DNA of 64,000 nucleotides from Candidatus Moanibacter sp. (GTDB taxonomy: Bacteria; Verrucomicrobiota; Verrucomicrobiia; Opitutales; UBA2987): NCBI GenBank assembly GCA_965215885.1, contig CBDCEW010000081.1, positions 12,527-76,526 on the forward strand, written 5' to 3'. Position 1 is the stretch's first letter, and each line of letters opens with the position of its first letter. The translations under genes were made by a program, and so were the position numbers. Under the pieces are notes generated by a model. That model was not told the DNA's origin. It searched no databases and saw only the letters and a program-made list of their open reading frames with translations. This document shows positions 4,856-60,435 of the stretch, piece after piece.

Positions 4856-5063
4856 AGGCACATTTTCTACCGCTCTTTGCGAATAAGGCGAAGATAAAAT
4901 GTCAACCATGAGAACTTCATCGGGCCCCGCCTGAAAGGTGGTCTCAGGCGATGCCAGCACGTTGCTTTCAGAGATGCTGTCTTCCATCCGAAAACTAACG
5001 GTGCAAATCTTTATGAATCGATGTACCTGTTTAGCGTTTCTGAGGCTGCCTCGGTCTTGCGCC

Positions 5064-6437
5064 CATAAGCGCTAACTTGTTTGCTTGACATAGTGCATTT
5101 CCTGCTGTGGACTTCCGCAACAGGTTAGCAGAATTGAAGGGAGGTCGACCATGATGGATGAAGACTGGAGCGTGCTGATGTCTTTTTTCCCGCCGCAATG
5201 GAAAGAATTGGCTAAGAAGACCAACGCGTTGAAGGGATTGCGCCGGGACAAGGCACCTGGGAAGTTGCTGAGGATTCTGATGGTGCACCTGGCATGTGGG
5301 TATTCGCTGCGCGAAACCGTGGTGCGTGCGCGCCAGGCGCAGTTGGCGGAACTGTCAGACGTAGCGTTGCTGAAGCGGCTGCGCAAGTGCAAGGACTGGC
5401 TTTATTCGCTGTGCGTGGCATTGTTTCGCGAGCGTGGCCTGGATTTGGGGGCGGTGGGGCAACGGGAGTTTCGTCTGATCGATGCGACGATGGTGAAGGA
5501 ACCCGGGAAGACGGGCAGCTTGTGGCGTGTGCACTATAGCTTGCGAGTTCCTTCGATGGCGTGCGATTTTTTCAAACTTACGCCAGCGCAAGGTGAAGGC
5601 ACCGGCGAGTCGCTTAGACAGTTTCCGCTGGCAGCAGGTGACTACGTGATCGCCGATCGGGGATACTGCCAGGCTTCCGGGCTTCAATATGCAGCCTCCC
5701 AAGGGGCTTTTGTAAGTATACGGCTGGCACCGCACAACATACGGCTGCTCGATCCTCGGGGAGAGGTTCTGAACCTGACCGCCTGCCTGGAGCAGATCGG
5801 GGCCGGTGGCAAGGTGGGCGCTTGGCCAGTCATGGTGCCCGCATCGGATCAGCCCCCGTTGCCAGCGCGGGTGTGTGCCATCCGCAAAAGCGAGCAAGCG
5901 ATCGCCATGGCCCACAAGAGATTGCGGCGAATCGCCAGCAGGCGGGGCGAGAAGCTGATGCCCGAAACGCTCTATTACGCCGAATACGTCATGGTGCTGA
6001 CGACTTTTCCTGAATCGCTCTTTTCCGCACTGGAGGTGCTCGAATGGTATCGTATCCGCTGGCAGGTGGAACTGGTCTTCAAACGATTCAAACAGATCGC
6101 ACAGTTAGGACATCTGCCTAAGTATGACGATGAAAGCGCCAAGGCGTGGCTCTATGGCAAGCTCTTCGCGGCCCTGATCACCGAGAAGATCATTCAAAGT
6201 GCGATCTCTATTTCCCCCTGGGGATATGTCCTGGAGCCGGAAAAAACAGCAGAGTCGATGGCGTGAGTTTGCCTTCGTCTTCCATCAACTCCAGCGGGCC
6301 GTCGATCCCGCTGTGCCTTTGCGACAAGTGATAGAAAATTGGAACGATATAGCTCAAGGCTTAGCAGAGTCTCCACGGCAACGCCGACCACAGTTAGAGG
6401 TCAGATTCCCAGGTCAGCAAACAAGTTAGCGCTTATG
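5064..6437 (+). mobile_element. IS4-family insertion sequence
   Basis: TIR CATAAGCGCTAACTTGTTTGCT / AGCAAACAAGTTAGCGCTTATG. Flanks GGTCTTGCGCC / GGTCTTGTGCC (11-bp TSD with one mismatch; the boundary could equally be read as 7 or 9 bp). Confidence 0.9.
5151..6266 (+). CDS. IS4-family DDE transposase
   Basis: LIDAT, IADRGY, and YRIRWQVELVFKRFK (YREK motif). Confidence 0.92.
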   Translation: MMDEDWSVLMSFFPPQWKELAKKTNALKGLRRDKAPGKLLRILMVHLACGYSLRETVVRARQAQLAELSDVALLKRLRKCKDWLYSLCVALFRERGLDLGAVGQREFRLIDATMVKEPGKTGSLWRVHYSLRVPSMACDFFKLTPAQGEGTGESLRQFPLAAGDYVIADRGYCQASGLQYAASQGAFVSIRLAPHNIRLLDPRGEVLNLTACLEQIGAGGKVGAWPVMVPASDQPPLPARVCAIRKSEQAIAMAHKRLRRIASRRGEKLMPETLYYAEYVMVLTTFPESLFSALEVLEWYRIRWQVELVFKRFKQIAQLGHLPKYDDESAKAWLYGKLFAALITEKIIQSAISISPWGYVLEPEKTAESMA

Positions 6438-6491
6438 GGTCTTGTGCCGGGGTGGTGCACGCTATACAGCTACAATAGGCGATTGCCACCG

Positions 6492-6576
6492 CCCGCCCCT
6501 CCACCGTTCCTTTCTCGCCTCAGTCCCGGCGCGACGCGCCGGGACTGAGGCGAGAAAGGAACGCTGGAGGGGCGGG
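6492..6576. repeat. Near-perfect palindrome: 42-bp arms, 1-nt spacer, one mismatch
   Basis: CCCGCCCCTCCACCGTTCCTTTCTCGCCTCAGTCCCGGCGCG-A-CGCGCCGGGACTGAGGCGAGAAAGGAACGCTGGAGGGGCGGG. Confidence 0.95.
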
Positions 6577-6947
6577 TAGAAGCACACGGCTGATAGCAGG
6601 GAACGCGCGACACCCCGGCGCAAGACCCATAATTACGAAATTGGGTTGGAGAACCCAAAGTAAATGTTATTCAGGCACTTGCAAGATTCTATTGATTACA
6701 TAGTATGCCAGAATGGAGTTTCAACGATTGTTGTGTGTGGGTTCGTTAGAGGTAGAGAGCTTTTCTTGCAGGTTTGTTTTCAGTTAGAAACTTGTTGAGT
6801 ATTAATCAGTTACAAAAGCGCTTTGAACGGGGAGTTGATTTCTGGTGGCAATTGAGTAGAAGCGAAGGGAGCTGGAGAAAGTTGGTATTGGCATTGTATG
6901 TAAAAGAAAGTTTGCAGTTTTGCCTCCTTTCCATACTGTGCCGGTGC

Positions 6948-7664
6948 ATGCAAGAAGAGCTTTCGCGTAAAGAGAGGGAGGTGGTCGAAGCGGTACGGCG
7001 GGATCGGGTAAGCACGGTGTGGAGGCTGATGAAGGAGCAGAGGGTGTCGCGGCGAACGGTCTATCGGGCTTTGCAAAAATATGGCCATTACTCCAGTTAC
7101 AATGCCAATTGTGGCTACCTGAGCTTGAAAGACATTCCGCGCTTTGACGGGGCCGGTTTGTGGCGTTTTCGCAAGGGGCGCTTTTCGCGCCACGGCACCT
7201 TGGAGGAGACCGTGGAGGCGGTGGTGGGAGCTTCGCTTTGCGGCTACACGGTGGCTGAGTTGGAGACCCTCCTTGGGGTACGGGTGCACAACCCCATAAG
7301 CGTGCTTTGTAGAAAGAAGCGGTTGAGTCGATACGATGAAGGGCGTCACTGCGTGTATGTCTCGGCCGGGGAACAGGGCGGGGCCGAACAGAAAAAGCGG
7401 CGGCAAGGGCGAAGAACAGCGGCACAAGTTCAGGCAGGGGACCCCGGGGGCGCTTTGCAGGCAGCTCCCGAAGGGCTCGAAACGATGGTCGTGATCGCTT
7501 TGCTGGTCGCCTGTATCGGCCATCCCGAGGCCGGGGTCAAGGAGCTTGTCGAGCTTATGCAAGAGCAGGGAGTAGAGCTGAGCGGGGAGCAAATTGAGCG
7601 GGTGATGGCGTTTTACTCGCTCAAAAAAAAACCGGCCGATCGCGGTAGCGGAGCTGTTACATGA
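6948..7664 (+). CDS. IS ORF-A, HTH-like DNA-binding protein; probable N-terminal part of the transposase
   Basis: VSRRTVYRAL HTH-like segment; ends just after an A9 run that overlaps the open ORF-B frame. Confidence 0.7.
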   Translation: MQEELSRKEREVVEAVRRDRVSTVWRLMKEQRVSRRTVYRALQKYGHYSSYNANCGYLSLKDIPRFDGAGLWRFRKGRFSRHGTLEETVEAVVGASLCGYTVAELETLLGVRVHNPISVLCRKKRLSRYDEGRHCVYVSAGEQGGAEQKKRRQGRRTAAQVQAGDPGGALQAAPEGLETMVVIALLVACIGHPEAGVKELVELMQEQGVELSGEQIERVMAFYSLKKKPADRGSGAVT

Positions 7665-7665
7665 T

Positions 7666-9483
7666 TTGCGGGCAGAGGCTGAACGGGCCCTGCAAACGGT
7701 GGGGGCTGTGCCTGCGCAAACGAGTTATCGCTTCGATGCCCGGGAGGACGAAGAGGGTCCTTCAGAGGTGCGCAAGACCCTGCGCCGCAAGGTGGTCAGT
7801 TTCTCCTATGGATGCTTCCAGGCGGTGGAAGTTGTGCGCGAGCAGGGGCAAGGGAGCCACCGCAACAGCTACCGTTCTGCTCGCCTGGAACAGATCGTGC
7901 CCTCGCATAGTCGCTACGCTTACGATCTGATTGCCTATGTGGGCAAGCGATGTTTGTGCGAAAGCGCCACCCTCAAAGAGGTGCACAGGGAACTGCGCGA
8001 GGGCCCGGGGCAGCTGCAGATTGCTCAAAGCAGCCTCTATGAGATGCAGCAGAAGTTTCTTTTTTATCTGGGTCGGCTGCACGCCGCGGCCGCTCCGGTG
8101 CTTAAAGATTACCTGAGCGCTCGCCCTTGCCTGCGCTGGCTGGTGGATGGGACCGTGGAACCGCAGACGCCGGTTTTCTTCGCTGTTCAGGAAGCCGACG
8201 AAGGGATCCTTTTGGGCAGCTGGAAAATGCCTTCCGAACAGAGCGAAACGATCAGTGGCTGTTTTGCCCGGGCGGCCCGGGCTTTTGGCCAACCCCACCA
8301 TGTCTATCATGATTTAAGCGCTCAGATCAGCAAGGCCTGCGAGAGCGAAACCTTCCAGGCCCCCCATGGCGTCTGCCATTATCATTTCGCCCGCAATGTG
8401 GGCGAACAGCTTTATCGAAAACCCCAGCAGATGCTCAACGGGCGCTTGCGGCAATTGAAGCTCATGGAGCGCATGCGCGAGCAACGCAAACACATCACCG
8501 CAAAGCTCCGTGACGCCCTCCGTGAAAAACACGCCCTCGTCCTGGCCGATTTGCTCACCGCCAAAGCGCTCGCAGTGCCCTTCGATCCCACCCTTGCACG
8601 GGAACTGCTCATGGCCCTGCAATTGTGGATTTTGGATTATCCCTGCGACGGTCACCGCCAGGGCTTTCCCTTCGATCCTTACCTGCTTTATTGGCATCGG
8701 CGGGTCGTGCGCGCCCATGCCGCCCTGGAGCAGTGGCTTGCCCGCGCTCCTGCCAGTTGCTCTGTTCTGCGAAGCTTCTTTCATCTTTCGACCGGGTTGA
8801 AGCAGTATCTGGCTGATGCCCTCGTCATCGAAGCCGCTACTATCTATGAAAACGCTTTTTGCATTTTCAGCGCTTTGCGCGATGCCCTTTGGCTCAGCGC
8901 CAGCGGCCCCTGCCCTTTAAGCGACCCTTATCTGTTGCAAGCAGGACAAGCCGCTGAGCTCACCGAGGCTCTCCAGTTGCTGCGTGCCCAATATCGCCAA
9001 AAAGGCGCCTCCCTGACCAACCCCTCGAAAGCCAAACTCTACCGCACCGTGGTCACTCATCTGGACAAATACTGGCAGCGGCTGCTTCCCCCACCGGCCC
9101 ATCCAGACAGCGTACGCACGACCAATGAGCTGGAAGGCACCTGGCGCACCTCCAAGCGCAAACGCCGTCAAACCCACGGGCGCAAAAATCTGACGCGCGA
9201 CTTTGAAGCGCTCCCCGAAGAATACATGCTCCTGGCCAACTTACACAATCCCCGCTATGTGGAGCTGGTTTTAGGCAGTATCGATAATCTGCCCCAAAAG
9301 CTTGCCCAGGCTGCACAGAAAGCACCCCCCTTCAGTCACTGGCGGGCGAACAGAAAAACCCTCGCCGTGGGTCGATTGCCCAAAAAGCTCCTGCGAAAAG
9401 AAAACTTCCTTGAGGAACTCTTCGAAGTCTGTAATCGCCAGGATCAATCCTTAAACCCGCAACCCCATCGGATTGCCTCCTGA
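7666..9483 (+). CDS. IS ORF-B, Mutator/IS256-like DDE transposase
   Basis: WLVDGT (D), VYHDLS (D), VCHYHF (CxxH) and RTTNELEG (E). Confidence 0.82.
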   Translation: MRAEAERALQTVGAVPAQTSYRFDAREDEEGPSEVRKTLRRKVVSFSYGCFQAVEVVREQGQGSHRNSYRSARLEQIVPSHSRYAYDLIAYVGKRCLCESATLKEVHRELREGPGQLQIAQSSLYEMQQKFLFYLGRLHAAAAPVLKDYLSARPCLRWLVDGTVEPQTPVFFAVQEADEGILLGSWKMPSEQSETISGCFARAARAFGQPHHVYHDLSAQISKACESETFQAPHGVCHYHFARNVGEQLYRKPQQMLNGRLRQLKLMERMREQRKHITAKLRDALREKHALVLADLLTAKALAVPFDPTLARELLMALQLWILDYPCDGHRQGFPFDPYLLYWHRRVVRAHAALEQWLARAPASCSVLRSFFHLSTGLKQYLADALVIEAATIYENAFCIFSALRDALWLSASGPCPLSDPYLLQAGQAAELTEALQLLRAQYRQKGASLTNPSKAKLYRTVVTHLDKYWQRLLPPPAHPDSVRTTNELEGTWRTSKRKRRQTHGRKNLTRDFEALPEEYMLLANLHNPRYVELVLGSIDNLPQKLAQAAQKAPPFSHWRANRKTLAVGRLPKKLLRKENFLEELFEVCNRQDQSLNPQPHRIAS

Positions 9484-9730
9484 CAACGACTCCAGTGCCC
9501 TCCCTCTGCTCCCCATTTTCTTCATGCTCTAACCAGAGAACTCCACGCAATTTGCGGGCCAACCGAAATTCAGAACGATGGGCACAAGACCGGGGCAGCC
9601 AGCAATCGAAGGCATGACGCTAAACACGTACGATCCGATCGGATCATAAAGATTTGCACCGTTATGTGGAGAGCAACGAGTCAGGCGGTTTGGTAAACAG
9701 GCGGCTAAATGGTTACACAACAGAATATTA

Positions 9731-24245: not shown

Positions 24246-24647
24246 CAGAATTAAGAGCCCGTAGGACTCTGATTCCATCTGTGTTAGGCGTTATGCCTTC
24301 GATTACTGTCTGCCCCGGTCTTGTGCCCATAATTACGAAATTGGGTTGGAGAACCCAAAGTAAATGTTATTCAGGCACTTGCAAGATTCTATTGATTACA
24401 TAGTATGCCAGAATGGAGTTTCAACGATTGTTGTGTGTGGGTTCGTTAGAGGTAGAGAGCTTTTCCTGCAGGTTTGTTTTCAGTTAGAAACTTGTTGAGT
24501 ATTAATCAGTTACAAAAGCGCTTTGAACGGGGAGTTGATTTCTGGTGGCAATTGAGTAGAAGCGAAGGGAGCTGGAGAAAGTTGGTATTGGCATTGTATG
24601 TAAAATAAAGTTTGCAGTTTTGCCTCCTTTCCATACTGTGCCGGTGC

Positions 24648-25364
24648 ATGCAAGAAGAGCTTTCGCGTAAAGAGAGGGAGGTGGTCGAAGCGGTACGGCG
24701 GGATCGGGTAAGCACGGTGTGGAGGCTGATGAAGGAGCAGAGGGTGTCGCGGCGAACGGTCTATCGGGCTTTGCAAAAATATGGCCATTACTCCAGTTAC
24801 AATGCCAATTGTGGCTACCTGAGCTTGAAAGACATTCCGCGCTTTGACGGGGCCGGTTTGTGGCGTTTTCGCAAGGGGCGCTTTTCGCGCCACGGCACCT
24901 TGGAGGAGACCGTGGAGGCGGTGGTGGGAGCTTCGCTTTGCGGCTACACGGTGGCTGAGTTGGAGACCCTCCTTGGGGTACGGGTGCACAACCCCATAAG
25001 CGTGCTTTGTAGAAAGAAGCGGTTGAGTCGATACTATGAAGGGCGTCACTGCGTGTATGTCTCGGCCGGGGAACAGGGCGGGGCCGAACAGAAAAAGCGG
25101 CGGCAAGGGCGAAGAACAGCGGCACAAGTTCAGGCAGGGGACCCCGGGGGCGCTTTGCAGGCAGCTCCCGAAGGGCTCGAAACGATGGTCGTGATCGCTT
25201 TGCTGGTCGCCTGTATCGGCCATCCCGAGGCCGGGGTCAAGGAGCTTGTCGAGCTTATGCAAGAGCAGGGAGTAGAGCTGAGCGGGGAGCAAATTGAGCG
25301 GGTGATGGCGTTTTACTCGCTCAAAAAAAACCGGACCGATCGCGGTAGCGGAGCTGTTACATGA
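24648..25364 (+). CDS. IS ORF-A, copy 2
   Basis: Near-identical to 6948-7664; A8 run near its end. Confidence 0.7.
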   Translation: MQEELSRKEREVVEAVRRDRVSTVWRLMKEQRVSRRTVYRALQKYGHYSSYNANCGYLSLKDIPRFDGAGLWRFRKGRFSRHGTLEETVEAVVGASLCGYTVAELETLLGVRVHNPISVLCRKKRLSRYYEGRHCVYVSAGEQGGAEQKKRRQGRRTAAQVQAGDPGGALQAAPEGLETMVVIALLVACIGHPEAGVKELVELMQEQGVELSGEQIERVMAFYSLKKNRTDRGSGAVT

Positions 25365-25365
25365 T

Positions 25366-27174
25366 TTGCGGGCAGAGGCTGAACGGGCCCTGCAAACGGT
25401 GGGGGCTGTGCCTGCGCAAACGAGTTATCGCTTCGATGCCCGGGAGGACGAAGAGGGTCCTTCAGAGGTGCGCAAGACCCTGCGCCGCAAGGTGGTCAGT
25501 TTCTCCTATGGATGCTTCCAGGCGGTGGAAGTTGTGCGCGAGCAGGGGCAAGGGAGCCACCGCAACAGCTACCGTTCTGCTCGCCTGGAACAGATCGTGC
25601 CCTCGCATAGTCGCTACGCTTACGATCTGATTGCCTATGTGGGCAAGCGATGTTTGTGCGAAAGCGCCACCCTCAAAGAGGTGCACAGGGAACTGCGCGA
25701 GGGCCCGGGGCAGCTGCAGATTGCTCAAAGCAGCCTCTATGAGATGCAGCAGAAGTTTCTTTTTTATCTGGGTCGGCTGCACGCCGCGGCCGCTCCGGTG
25801 CTTAAAGATTACCTGAGCGCTCGCCCTTGCCTGCGCTGGCTGGTGGATGGGACCGTGGAACCGCAGACGCCGGTTTTCTTCGCTGTTCAGGAAGCCGACG
25901 AAGGGATCCTTTTGGGCAGCTGGAAAATGCCTTCCGAACAGAGCGAAACGATCAGTGGCTGTTTTGCCCGGGCTTTTGGCCAACCCCACCATGTCTATCA
26001 TGATTTAAGCGCTCAGATCAGCAAGGCCTGCGAGAGCGAAACCTTCCAGGCCCCCCATGGCGTCTGCCATTATCATTTCGCCCGCAATGTGGGCGAACAG
26101 CTTTATCGAAAACCCCAGCAGATGCTCAACGGGCGCTTGCGGCAATTGAAGCTCATGGAGCGCATGCGCGAGCAACGCAAACACATCACCGCAAAGCTCC
26201 GTGACGCCCTCCGTGAAAAACACGCCCTCGTCCTGGCCGATTTGCTCACCGCCAAAGCGCTCGCAGTGCCCTTCGATCCCACCCTTGCACGGGAACTGCT
26301 CATGGCCCTGCAATTGTGGATTTTGGATTATCCCTGCGACGGTCACCGCCAGGGCTTTCCCTTCGATCCTTACCTGCTTTATTGGCATCGGCGGGTCGTG
26401 CGCGCCCATGCCGCCCTGGAGCAGTGGCTTGCCCGCGCTCCTGCCAGTTGCTCTGTTCTGCGAAGCTTCTTTCATCTTTCGACCGGGTTGAAGCAGTATC
26501 TGGCTGATGCCCTCGTCATCGAAGCCGCTACTATCTATGAAAACGCTTTTTGCATTTTCAGCGCTTTGCGCGATGCCCTTTGGCTCAGCGCCAGCGGCCC
26601 CTGCCCTTTAAGCGACCCTTATCTGTTGCAAGCAGGACAAGCCGCTGAGCTCACCGAGGCTCTCCAGTTGCTGCGTGCCCAATATCGCCAAAAAGGCGCC
26701 TCCCTGACCAACCCCTCGAAAGCCAAACTCTACCGCACCGTGGTCACTCATCTGGACAAATACTGGCAGCGGCTGCTTCCCCCACCGGCCCATCCAGACA
26801 GCGTACGCACGACCAATGAGCTGGAAGGCACCTGGCGCACCTCCAAGCGCAAACGCCGTCAAACCCACGGGCGCAAAAATCTGACGCGCGACTTTGAAGC
26901 GCTCCCCGAAGAATACATGCTCCTGGCCAACTTACACAATCCCCGCTATGTGGAGCTGGTTTTAGGCAGTATCGATAATCTGCCCCAAAAGCTTGCCCAG
27001 GCTGCACAGAAAGCACCCCCCTTCAGTCACTGGCGGGCGAACAGAAAAACCCTCGCCGTGGGTCGATTGCCCAAAAAGCTCCTGCGAAAAGAAAACTTCC
27101 TTGAGGAACTCTTCGAAGTCTGTAATCGCCAGGATCAATCCTTAAACCCGCAACCCCATCGGATTGCCTCCTGA
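25366..27174 (+). CDS. IS ORF-B Mutator-like transposase, copy 2
   Basis: Matches copy 1 except ARAARAF to ARAF. Confidence 0.82.
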   Translation: MRAEAERALQTVGAVPAQTSYRFDAREDEEGPSEVRKTLRRKVVSFSYGCFQAVEVVREQGQGSHRNSYRSARLEQIVPSHSRYAYDLIAYVGKRCLCESATLKEVHRELREGPGQLQIAQSSLYEMQQKFLFYLGRLHAAAAPVLKDYLSARPCLRWLVDGTVEPQTPVFFAVQEADEGILLGSWKMPSEQSETISGCFARAFGQPHHVYHDLSAQISKACESETFQAPHGVCHYHFARNVGEQLYRKPQQMLNGRLRQLKLMERMREQRKHITAKLRDALREKHALVLADLLTAKALAVPFDPTLARELLMALQLWILDYPCDGHRQGFPFDPYLLYWHRRVVRAHAALEQWLARAPASCSVLRSFFHLSTGLKQYLADALVIEAATIYENAFCIFSALRDALWLSASGPCPLSDPYLLQAGQAAELTEALQLLRAQYRQKGASLTNPSKAKLYRTVVTHLDKYWQRLLPPPAHPDSVRTTNELEGTWRTSKRKRRQTHGRKNLTRDFEALPEEYMLLANLHNPRYVELVLGSIDNLPQKLAQAAQKAPPFSHWRANRKTLAVGRLPKKLLRKENFLEELFEVCNRQDQSLNPQPHRIAS

Positions 27175-27382
27175 CAACGACTCCAGTGCCCTCCCTCTGC
27201 TCCCCATTTTCTTCATGCTCTAACCAGAGAACTCCACGCAATTTGCGTGCCAACCGAAATTCAGAACGATGGGCACAAGACCGGGGCAGCCTCAAAACGC
27301 TAAATAGGTACCTAAGTCCGACAGATTCCTACCGTTAGCGAGAAGGGAAGGAGAGAGATCGAACTGGTTGACTCACGATCGT

Positions 27383-60412: not shown

Positions 60413-60435
60413 CAGCCTCAGAAACGCTAAACAGG
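60413..60435. repeat. Solo remnant of the carrier-element end
   Basis: CAGCCTCAGAAACGCTAAACAGG is the exact reverse complement of 5026-5048. Confidence 0.75.

Follow-up and report, generated by a model that had tools for sequence, protein, structure and literature searches.

In the window analysed here, a stretch of 64,000 nucleotides from Candidatus Moanibacter sp., two insertion sequences (IS) occupy the two small hairpins of a single miniature element, referred to here as the carrier, which lies in turn within a host palindrome (Table 1). We read this locus, with a probability of roughly two-thirds, as a three-layer nest in which the host palindrome encloses a foldback carrier with IS66-type ends and the carrier encloses one IS in each of its subterminal hairpins. 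Carrier and IS alike are multi-copy in this genome; both IS reside almost exclusively in the hairpin, hereafter the pad, and the carrier occurs independently of them.

Anatomy of the nested locus

With both IS and one copy of each target taken out, 260 bp remain, in agreement with the original prediction made from the sequence, which had also anticipated the terminal inverted repeats (TIRs) and the 42-bp arms of the central hairpin. The two small hairpins are present as well, the left one holding an IS4-type element (IS_A) and the right one a Mutator-like element with two open reading frames (IS_B), as proposed; the facing CCCCGG stems attributed to them do not hold on the left, where the window reads CCTCGG. 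Each IS is flanked by an 11-bp GG-N7-CC duplication centred on the axis of its hairpin, with 10 of 11 bases matching, bearing out the claim that both use the same site in the same register. Both had been said to start with CATAA, which is true of their left ends but not of the right end of IS_B (CATCG) or of any of 40 ends of IS_B relatives, and the CATAA match between the two IS is a coincidence. Their transposases are indeed unrelated and could not be aligned with each other (best E value, 0.22).

Table 1. Features of the nested locus, in window coordinates
Feature	Position	Strand	Remarks
Host palindromic repeat, left arm (pre-existing)	4996..5022	.	Intact palindrome at 6 other genome places
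Carrier 8-bp target duplication, left copy	5015-5022	.	Within left arm of host palindrome
Carrier left TIR, IS66/ISBst12-type	5023..5037	+	15 bp; consensus of autonomous elements
Left pad hairpin, outer half	5049..5063	.	5053-5063, IS4 11-bp duplication, left copy
IS_A (IS4-family element)	5064..6437	+	1374 bp; 22-bp perfect TIRs
IS4 transposase of IS_A	5151..6266	+	371 aa; Y(2)R(3)E(6)K motif; NF033592 match
Left pad, inner half	6438..6452	.	6438-6448, IS4 duplication, right copy
Carrier central hairpin	6492..6576	.	42-bp arms (6492-6533/6535-6576), 41/42 complementary; 1-nt loop
Right pad, inner half	6613..6627	.	6617-6627, IS_B 11-bp duplication, left copy
IS_B (two-ORF Mutator-like element)	6628..9580	+	2953 bp; TIR 16/22
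IS_B ORF1	6774..7664	+	Weak helix-turn-helix matches; likelier start, ATG at 6948
IS_B ORF2, predicted DDE transposase	7666..9483	+	D161, D216, C237/H240, E490; model fold
Right pad, outer half	9581..9595	.	9581-9591, IS_B duplication, right copy
Carrier right TIR	9617..9631	-	15 bp
Host palindrome, right part	9632..9664	.	9632-9639, 8-bp duplication, right copy, 6/8 matching left copy

Contig C85 independently replicates the arrangement, with both IS in one carrier, a carrier duplication matching at 8/8 positions and IS duplications matching at 11/11 each. No contig from eight sequencing runs spans the whole window locus and such repeats mislead assemblers, both of which would suit an explanation of the structure as an assembly artefact, or of the carrier halves as long ends of the IS. 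This explanation is largely refuted and has next to no probability in our view: empty carriers are plentiful, a relative of another genus (G006) has carriers without the IS, relatives of both IS share their termini but have other flanks, and in runs X1 and X2 contigs extend from unique flanking sequence across the end of the carrier and reach 27 bases into IS_A (below the 31-base bridging rule). G006 holds 134 pads, one match to IS_A at 25% identity and none to IS_B.

The carrier and its target duplication

The original prediction withstood both of its refuting checks: empty copies of the carrier exist, the sequences around either IS are not carried along with it, and further copies of both IS keep almost wholly to the pad. 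Among 105 merged profile matches, 18 are near-full empty carriers with a median pairwise identity of 76%; the carrier is noncoding and 194 to 250 bp long in the 16 copies measured. The whole ~250-bp element forms one foldback, within which a subterminal inverted repeat of ~27 bp has the two small hairpins as its cores. The arms of the central hairpin vary between copies with their complementarity kept, and folding of an empty copy gave z = -17.4. No Rfam family reached its gathering score, the matches below it being to generic hairpins only. Empty pad motifs with at most two mismatches number 98 in the genome versus 0 in one dinucleotide shuffle which, together with the fold score, argues that the structure of pad and carrier is not due to chance.

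The 3-bp GAT duplication originally ascribed to the carrier is really 8 bp long, based on the following: (i) over 55 carrier end pairs, flank identity was maximal at 8 bp (0.59), other lengths giving 0.21 to 0.28, (ii) in 16 near-full empty carriers, the 8-bp flanks agreed at 6 or more of 8 positions in 12 and a 3-bp repeat was present in 0, and (iii) reconstruction of the empty host site with 8 bp gives a sequence present at 6 genomic places, against 0 for the reconstruction with 3 bp. The middle of the window carrier and its mismatched duplication also occur in a copy on contig C105 with different flanks, and a duplicate of the window locus on C38 lacks IS_B, a distribution that fits a patch copied by recombination.

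IS66-type parentage of the carrier

By sequence comparison, the carrier is a noncoding miniature element whose end motif (GTAC-S-TGTTTAGCGT) and 8-bp duplication match those of single-ORF IS66 elements of the ISBst12 type, a putative link that draws on 15 terminal bases and the duplication length. At locus L044, a carrier-type end motif lies upstream of an IS66 zinc-finger ORF, and a full-length relative of L044 scores above the IS66 cut-off. A TIR pair was found in 53 of 80 related loci, 25 of these with an 8-bp duplication; the TIR consensus of autonomous relatives is GTACTTGTTTAGCGT, 20 of the 53 paired elements agree with the carrier end in at least 14 of its 15 bases, and autonomous relatives with near-identical ends are 1.5 to 1.6 kb long.

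The search for an autonomous transposase with carrier-type ends, suggested by the original prediction, thus yielded related loci elsewhere but none in this genome (G000, 90% complete), and no cognate transposase was found in G006 either. The only IS66-type sequences here are a classic IS66 with GTAAGCGACC ends, which exclude it as the parent, and one short fragment. Another candidate parent, C27:14271-16127 (1857 bp, 8/8 duplication, 490-aa ORF), is actually a sister MITE holding another multi-copy element. Mobilization by a RAYT or IS200 is unsupported, pads having been found near only 1 of the 21 Y1 loci examined among 29 matches, an IS200 beside a carrier. The carrier is likely a now-immobile MITE with IS66 (ISBst12-type) ends. 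Its description as a structured nonautonomous element stands, with a likely parent family found, while the idea of a host-element/passenger system is unsupported, since nothing shows the carrier moving an IS and the search of the genome gave no cognate transposase.

The two insertion sequences

IS_A is present in six full copies and one cut by a contig end, 99.6 to 100% identical. Its transposase (translation, YRIRWQVELVFKRFK) is a single-ORF DDE enzyme with a Y(2)R(3)E(6)K motif that scores 131.6 bits against NF033592 (cut-off, 115), and the 11-bp direct repeats (about 10 bp in the family) and 22-bp TIR also fit the IS4 family. By comparison with PMC2266710, IS_A shares with IS231/ISH8 the CAT ends, the YREK motif, the 11-bp duplication, a G...C symmetric target and insertion into another mobile element, but its 1374 bp is under the typical size range of both; set against Table 1 of that source, it agrees with ISH8 in its CAT end and in having T at position 15, and with IS231 in AA at positions 11 and 12, but TAA misfits.

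The genome contains 33 left ends of IS_B and 33 right ones. A run of nine A residues (7623-7631), length-polymorphic among copies, directly precedes the ORF junction, and residues D161, D216, C237, H240 and E490 of ORF2 are invariant in 44 sequences. The DDE triad, C(2)H motif, helical insert, two ORFs and A run at the junction recall p-MULT/IS256, although the motif lies 21 aa after D216 (11 to 19 aa after D2 for the C/D(2)H motif of p-MULT/IS256), the D216-E490 gap of about 274 aa, helical in the model, is outside the published insert range of 99 to 138 aa, and the score against the IS256 family model is 28 bits, below the cut-off of 150. IS_B had no match among PDB sequences. The structural model of ORF2 predicts a fold of the RNase H-like type that includes an insertion domain, apparently near Hermes (E = 2e-6) and ISCth4 (E = 2e-5), the top Foldseek matches, with low TM-scores of 0.2 to 0.3. 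Among the assembled contigs, a single opposite-strand joint was seen in run X6, giving no evidence for a circular transposition intermediate.

Targeting of the pad by both insertion sequences

A pad-like 11-mer adjoins 12 of 13 IS_A ends, the 13th lying in a variant carrier and pad, and 61 of 66 IS_B ends, five being off pad; beyond the window locus, too, this hairpin is thus the almost exclusive site of both IS. IS_A ends beside non-pad sequence were seen in single contigs of two runs. IS_B is co-resident in 3 of the 7 IS_A carriers, judged by eye to be near its occupancy of roughly 30%, and no enrichment is claimed. No carrier was seen with two inverted copies of one IS, an arrangement that insertion into a folded stem predicts and that would assemble poorly.

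Relatives of IS_A have an 11-bp duplication (at least 10/11) at 14 of 35 loci, exactly GG-N7-CC in 8 of the 14. Relatives of IS_B, found by an alignment-based scan where a single-protein scan gave none, have both ends at 13 of 30 loci and an 11-bp duplication (at least 9/11) with C-rich/G-rich arms at 6. Both lineages therefore make 11-bp duplications centred in G/C palindromes, including in carrier-free genomes, so that the shared register follows from geometry and calls for no common mechanism. However, the arms used by relatives of IS_A are mostly of the G-run/C-run type, opposite in order to those of the pad, and none of the 56 GGGG-N7-CCCC sites of this genome is used by IS_A, so inherited preference alone does not explain 7/7 IS_A copies.

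The pattern could also result from broad insertion into G/C palindromes with only intergenic copies surviving, and from gene conversion between carriers. Duplications are unmatched in 14 of the 30 paired IS_B copies, and the patch shared with C105 and C38 would fit as well. Yet 227 other GG-N7-CC hairpins have stems of at least 6 bp, of which 75 lie outside long ORFs and are unused, none of 19 intact CTCG-loop hairpins is filled, matched duplications flank 16 IS_B and 5 IS_A copies in carriers of differing sequence and in both orientations, and the classic IS66, another multi-copy IS of this genome, has varied flanks. We hold this explanation to be improbable. Insertion confined to the pad likely lets both IS multiply without breaking genes.

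Conservation of the pad

In the same 15 empty carriers, pad cores show 15 mismatches in 570 positions versus 55 in 450 for the TIRs (P = 2e-9), with 12 of the 15 pad mismatches confined to two variant copies; in G006, pads have 0 to 1 mismatch where TIRs show 5 to 8 of 15. In all of 81 pads, loop positions 7 and 13 are T-G, C-G or G-C, and the enclosed sequence is C-T-Y-G in 82 of 83 intact stems. Counting against the IS66 account, 24 of the 81 G000 pads, and 12 of the 15 G006 pads sampled, have no recognizable IS66 end close by. Pads lie outside long ORFs in 51 of 65 cases (rough mask), and those listed in G006 are mostly inverted pairs of fixed polarity. The pad is thus an abundant extragenic imperfect palindrome in inverted pairs, as REPs are, and its constraint appears older than both IS.

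The three-layer account does not explain this strong conservation. A different, rather unlikely, history would make the pad doublet the older unit, a REP-like imperfect hairpin maintained by selection or recopied by an HUH (Y1) enzyme and captured once by IS66 ends, with both IS recognizing the extruded hairpin or a bound protein instead of the duplex. The mismatch counts, the persistence of G006 pads beyond their TIRs, the constrained loop, the fixed polarity of the pairs and the CTTG cap, common to the end hairpins of resident IS200 elements and several REPs (PMC2817692, Table 1), speak for it. Against it, the pad is preceded by GCTG/GCTC or GCCA and not by a GT(A/G)G head, pads flank 0 of the 21 Y1 loci on both sides, the IS200 ends of G006 are not pad-like, and the palindromes into which relatives of both IS insert have unrelated loops. 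Moreover, young G006 carriers have intact IS66 ends and perfect 8-bp duplications, arguing that IS66 did the spreading. A search of 400 other genomes from the phylum gave no exact pad, and the 43 metagenome matches to pad-plus-CAT had no carrier or IS context, nor had the 4 viral matches.

Discussion

We propose a model of nested insertion in which an IS66 transposase, since lost, would have spread the carrier, which inserted into the host palindrome with an 8-bp duplication. Each IS would have come later, bringing a preference for G/C palindromes that marks its whole lineage and a symmetric transposase complex whose staggered cut spans 11 bp, which would force the same register. The pad would be the commonest intergenic site meeting both preferences, selection against insertions in genes would sharpen the pattern, and recombination between IS_B copies may later have exchanged flanks.

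IS231A has a GGG-N5-CCC target and inserts into the ends of Tn4430. The homing of IS into repeated palindromes is already known. In Sinorhizobium meliloti 1021, as described in PMC1525189, ISRm22 (IS4; 10/10), ISRm19 (IS110; 4/4) and ISRm5 (IS256; 5/7, adjacent) target REP sequences. As here, unrelated IS families use one class of GC-rich extragenic palindromes, with an IS4 element at the palindrome axis, and hybrid copies with unmatched direct repeats are put down to recombination; unlike there, the target here is a hairpin within an IS66-ended element with an 8-bp duplication, the two DDE families duplicate an identical 11 bp, and both occur together within single carriers. In Pseudomonas putida KT2440, ISPpu9 and ISPpu10 likewise occupy precisely the same site of a repeat, but both belong to IS110, whereas the present IS are of different DDE groups with unalignable transposases (PMC1525189). 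The original prediction of a possibly undescribed host-element/passenger system was overstated in this respect, the meeting of unrelated IS families on a single class of palindromic repeats having been published.

According to PMC12898284, ISBst12-group IS66 elements have a single ORF, and ISDge4 has GT..-type TIRs and an 8-bp repeat. The carrier shares the terminal repeat and the 8-bp duplication with this group but has no ORF, is a foldback of 250 bp whose subterminal hairpins are conserved, and takes hairpins as its insertion sites. The pad resembles REPs and BIMEs in being a multi-copy, imperfect, GC-rich palindrome in inverted pairs with a CTTG cap, and differs from the REP/RAYT systems of PMC2817692 by the missing GT(A/G)G head and pad-flanked RAYT gene. 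The main text of the p-MULT/IS256 comparison paper contains the word "palindrom" 0 times. In the literature covered (without supplements, ISfinder and most subscription papers), we found no report of two DDE families on one MITE hairpin or of GTAC-ended IS66 MITEs. What is new is the co-targeting with an IS4 element, the probable IS66 origin of the carrier, and hairpins far more conserved than the carrier ends.

A tentative extension, which we think less likely to hold than not by a wide measure, is that selection has kept the 19-bp pad as a strand-asymmetric hairpin signal like those read by HUH transposases, and that an IS66 MITE captured it and spread it in inverted pairs; the pad would outlive the MITE ends and now be a public landing pad that two unrelated DDE transposases read as structure or via a bound host protein. 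If so, a sink for IS would be maintained in this genome, and the enzyme pair would be a natural experiment on how DDE transposases attain near single-site specificity.

Our study brings together a pair of DDE transposases from unrelated families with a single defined target of 19 bp that is cut in a fixed register, so that readout of sequence, extruded structure or host protein by palindrome-targeting IS can be tested in parallel. Beside this, it places a widespread class of miniature elements with GTAC ends in ISBst12, a group of IS66 that has been little studied, and it indicates how intergenic repeats can confine about 40 IS copies along with the rearrangements that occur between these.

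RESULTS

Once IS_A (the IS4-family element in the left pad) and IS_B (the two-ORF, Mutator-like element in the right pad) are taken out of the window locus, a 260-bp carrier remains, bearing out the layout of terminal inverted repeats (TIRs), two IS, and central hairpin in the original prediction. Each IS lies between the copies of an 11-bp duplication, GG-N7-CC, that agree at 10/11 bases. The original prediction needs correcting in that the whole carrier folds as a single foldback (z = -17.4). Compensatory changes affect 22 of the 81 predicted pairs, nearly all within the central hairpin.

Coordinates of the features (window positions unless a contig, C, or database locus, L, is named)
Feature	Position	Detail
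Carrier TIRs	5023-5037 and 9617-9631	
IS_A	5064-6437	1374 bp
Central hairpin of carrier	between the two IS	41/42 bases complementary
IS_B	6628-9580	2953 bp
A run at IS_B ORF1/ORF2 junction	7623-7637	two phases across 34 copies
Second IS_B copy between two outer carrier ends	24281-27311 (IS_B, 24328-27271)	loops inverted
Lone piece of carrier left end	60413-60435	23 bp
Single-pad carrier derivatives	L030 (C44), L031 (C103)	~80 bp, both ends kept
Sister MITE family	L026-L029 (C23, C83, C67, C86), L011	~245 bp
Third repeat family with pad hairpin	C80:24970-25200, C85:38401-38631, C100:196116-196346	mostly CTCG loop
Unit with IS200-type end hairpins	L280-L285 (G006)	~465 bp
Palindrome-flanked ISBst12-type loci	L206, L213, L214, L216, L217, L225, L226, L227, L233, L234, L242, L250	

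The 3-bp GAT duplication originally assigned to the carrier was wrong: the duplication is 8 bp, its flanks matching at ≥6/8 positions in 12 of 16 near-full empty copies, none of which has the 3-bp repeat. Over 55 end pairs, among them pairs from a sister family and some that are spurious, flank identity is maximal at length 8 (0.59 versus 0.21 to 0.28 at other lengths). Rebuilt with 8 bp, the window host site is a perfect palindrome found at six other places; rebuilt with 3 bp, it is absent from the genome. A palindrome centre lies at the duplication edge in 11/27 rebuilt carrier targets, compared with 1% of random sites, and the carrier itself favours hairpins as target.

As anticipated, empty copies exist: a carrier profile search gave 105 merged matches, including 18 near-full empty copies (median pairwise identity, 76%). 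Among 40 relatives, one, G006, a 96%-complete genome of another genus, has the carrier (73 to 83% identity in the best matches), together with 134 pads; there, IS_A searches gave only a 25%-identity match, IS_B searches none, and no pad-CAT junction was found. Searches for the pad in 7 other family members and in 400 genomes of the phylum gave none. The carrier is independent of both IS. The sister MITE family shares its IS66 ends and 8-bp duplications and has another interior, and one copy contains a ~1575-bp multicopy element. The third repeat family forms inverted pairs spaced by ~212 bp; its flanks differ, and it lacks IS66 ends. In G006, the ~465-bp unit (at least 5 full copies, 96 to 99% identity) holds a decayed carrier, which hitch-hikes on an IS200 derivative.

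An end-motif scan gave 49 loci; many of these elements are short, have 8-bp duplications, and come from Planctomycetota, cyanobacteria, and other groups. In two loci, a carrier-type end precedes an IS66 transposase start, and a full-length relative scores above the IS66 cut-off. A TIR pair, set automatically and in a few cases mis-set, was found in 53 of 80 related loci, 25 with an 8-bp duplication; the TIR consensus of the 53 is GTACTTGTTTAGCGT, and 20 agree with the carrier end at ≥14/15 bases. The related autonomous elements have a single ORF and measure about 1.5 to 1.6 kb, in agreement with the description of the ISBst12 group (PMC12898284). The anticipated autonomous transposase with carrier-type ends was found at related loci, but searches of the source genome and G006 gave none of ISBst12 type; the resident IS66 was ruled out as parent by its different ends. 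Because IS66 elements share the ends and the 8-bp duplication and no such transposase was found in these two genomes, the carrier is likely an orphaned IS66 MITE. In G006, one young carrier subfamily whose ends are intact shows perfect 8-bp duplications.

Of the 21 ISBst12-type autonomous elements whose 8-bp duplication is intact, 12, all from Chloroflexia MAGs, have an AGAAC-N4-GTTCT-like palindrome, which we take to be a LexA/SOS box, exactly 3 bp from the duplication and in one register throughout. A literature search on this arrangement gave no match.

Tabulating the flanks of all copies in the source genome confirmed that both IS sit almost exclusively at the pad. For IS_A, 12/13 ends adjoin it, the 13th lying in a variant carrier, and duplications match in 5/6 pairs; against exclusivity, single contigs in sequencing runs X2 and X20 place IS_A ends beside non-pad sequence. 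For IS_B, 5/66 ends are off-pad and the other 61 adjoin a pad-like 11-mer; 2 of these 61 lie in a different repeat family that shares the hairpin, and 1, by reading, in a look-alike. Duplications match in 16/30 IS_B pairs; the 14 unmatched pairs are consistent with recombination among copies, the explanation advanced for ISRm22 in PMC1525189. Insertions occur in either pad and in either orientation. Of the 29,852 GG-N7-CC sites in the genome, 310 have stems of ≥6 bp; 227 of these are unrelated to the pad, 75 of the 227 lying outside long ORFs. None of 19 intact CTCG-loop hairpins is occupied (Fisher p = 3e-4, taking all 40 insertions as CTTG, about 3 too many; the flanks of these hairpins also differ). 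On C85, an independent carrier holds both IS, and the duplications of the carrier and of each IS are perfect; a third such carrier, on C14, is cut by the contig end. The second IS_B locus of the window is a recombinant without the central hairpin.

C38 carries a duplicate of the window neighbourhood (99.7% over 10 kb) in which IS_A is present and IS_B is not; therefore, IS_A likely arrived first. The middle of the window carrier is 98.9% identical to the C105 copy, compared with 93.7% to C38. The C105 copy, though differently flanked, holds IS_B in the pad used at the window and shows the identical mismatched duplication. IS_B at the window may be a recombination patch. A mis-assembly is also possible; contigs from 8 runs cover pieces of the locus, none spanning it whole.

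The IS_A transposase belongs to IS4 (NF033592, 131.6 bits; cut-off, 115). The first ORF of IS_B is helix-turn-helix-like. The second, of 605 aa, matches IS256 weakly (28 bits versus a cut-off of 150), and its D161, D216, C237, H240, and E490 are invariant among 44 homologues; its predicted fold is nearest Hermes and ISCth4 (mean pLDDT, 83.7). Direct comparison of the two transposases gave no alignment. The CATAA start attributed to both IS is common to their left ends only and occurs at 0/40 ends of IS_B relatives. The IS_B junction A run has one length in 16 copies and is one base longer in 18, which suggests that production of a fused transposase is controlled by frameshifting or slippage. 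On C72, C79, C85, C89, and C96, IS_B copies are themselves interrupted by elements of about 1.4, 1.9, and 3.8 kb.

DISCUSSION

The original prediction saw two DDE families converging; the same pad and 11-bp register stand, and lineage preferences would account for the register. Among 35 IS_A-like loci examined (47 found), 14 have an 11-bp duplication, 12 beginning with GG and 8 being exactly GG-N7-CC, in mostly G/C-rich context. Among 30 IS_B-like loci, both ends were found in 13 and an 11-bp duplication in 6, the left arms being rich in C and the right arms in G. Each lineage therefore contributes its own 11-bp stagger and symmetric G/C preference. By established DDE chemistry, a symmetric complex centred on the palindrome axis would force the same register on both. 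This geometry would explain the coincidence but not fully the 7/7 pad use by IS_A, because the relatives of IS_A favour arms in the reverse order and the genome has 56 sites of that kind with no insertion.

Across 15 distinct empty copies, pad cores have 15/570 mismatches versus 55/450 in TIRs (p = 2e-9, overstated as copies are related). G006 copies with 5 to 8 mismatches in 15 TIR positions hold pads at 0 to 1, and a recognisable IS66 end is missing at 12 of 15 sampled G006 pads. Loop positions 7 and 13 are T-G, C-G, or G-C in 81/81 pads. Foldback repair would act equally on TIRs and pads and yield compensatory drift, which is seen in the central hairpin; it would therefore not explain pad conservation. 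The likeliest reading is that the pad has been under constraint older than both IS. That the pad is maintained as a hairpin signal which both of the unrelated transposases read is doubtful, at roughly one chance in five. The CTTG cap also occurs on end hairpins of resident IS200 elements and on several REPs listed in the available part of PMC2817692. No RAYT association of pads was found at the Y1 loci examined. Both genomes hold many diverged ~330- to 440-aa RAYT-like genes (PF01797), several preceded by a GGGACAG/GGGTCAG motif resembling the sister-MITE interior.

IS231A has the target consensus GGG-N5-CCC and inserts into the ends of Tn4430. Our comparison draws on the accessible parts of PMC1525189, PMC2266710, PMC3942029, PMC12898284, PMC2817692, and PMC6199540. 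As far as the first goes, IS4, IS110, and IS256 elements are associated with REPs in one Sinorhizobium meliloti genome, and two IS110 elements share one REP position in Pseudomonas putida. The window system resembles the S. meliloti REPs in that unrelated IS families occupy one palindromic repeat class in one genome (PMC1525189, in part). The suggestion that the system may be undescribed thus holds for the combination, a literature search of main texts giving no report of two DDE families sharing a hairpin of an IS66-type MITE, but not for the convergence of IS families on REPs, which is published (PMC1525189, in part). The two-IS, shared-pad system is real and well supported, as a variant of the known targeting of palindromes by IS.
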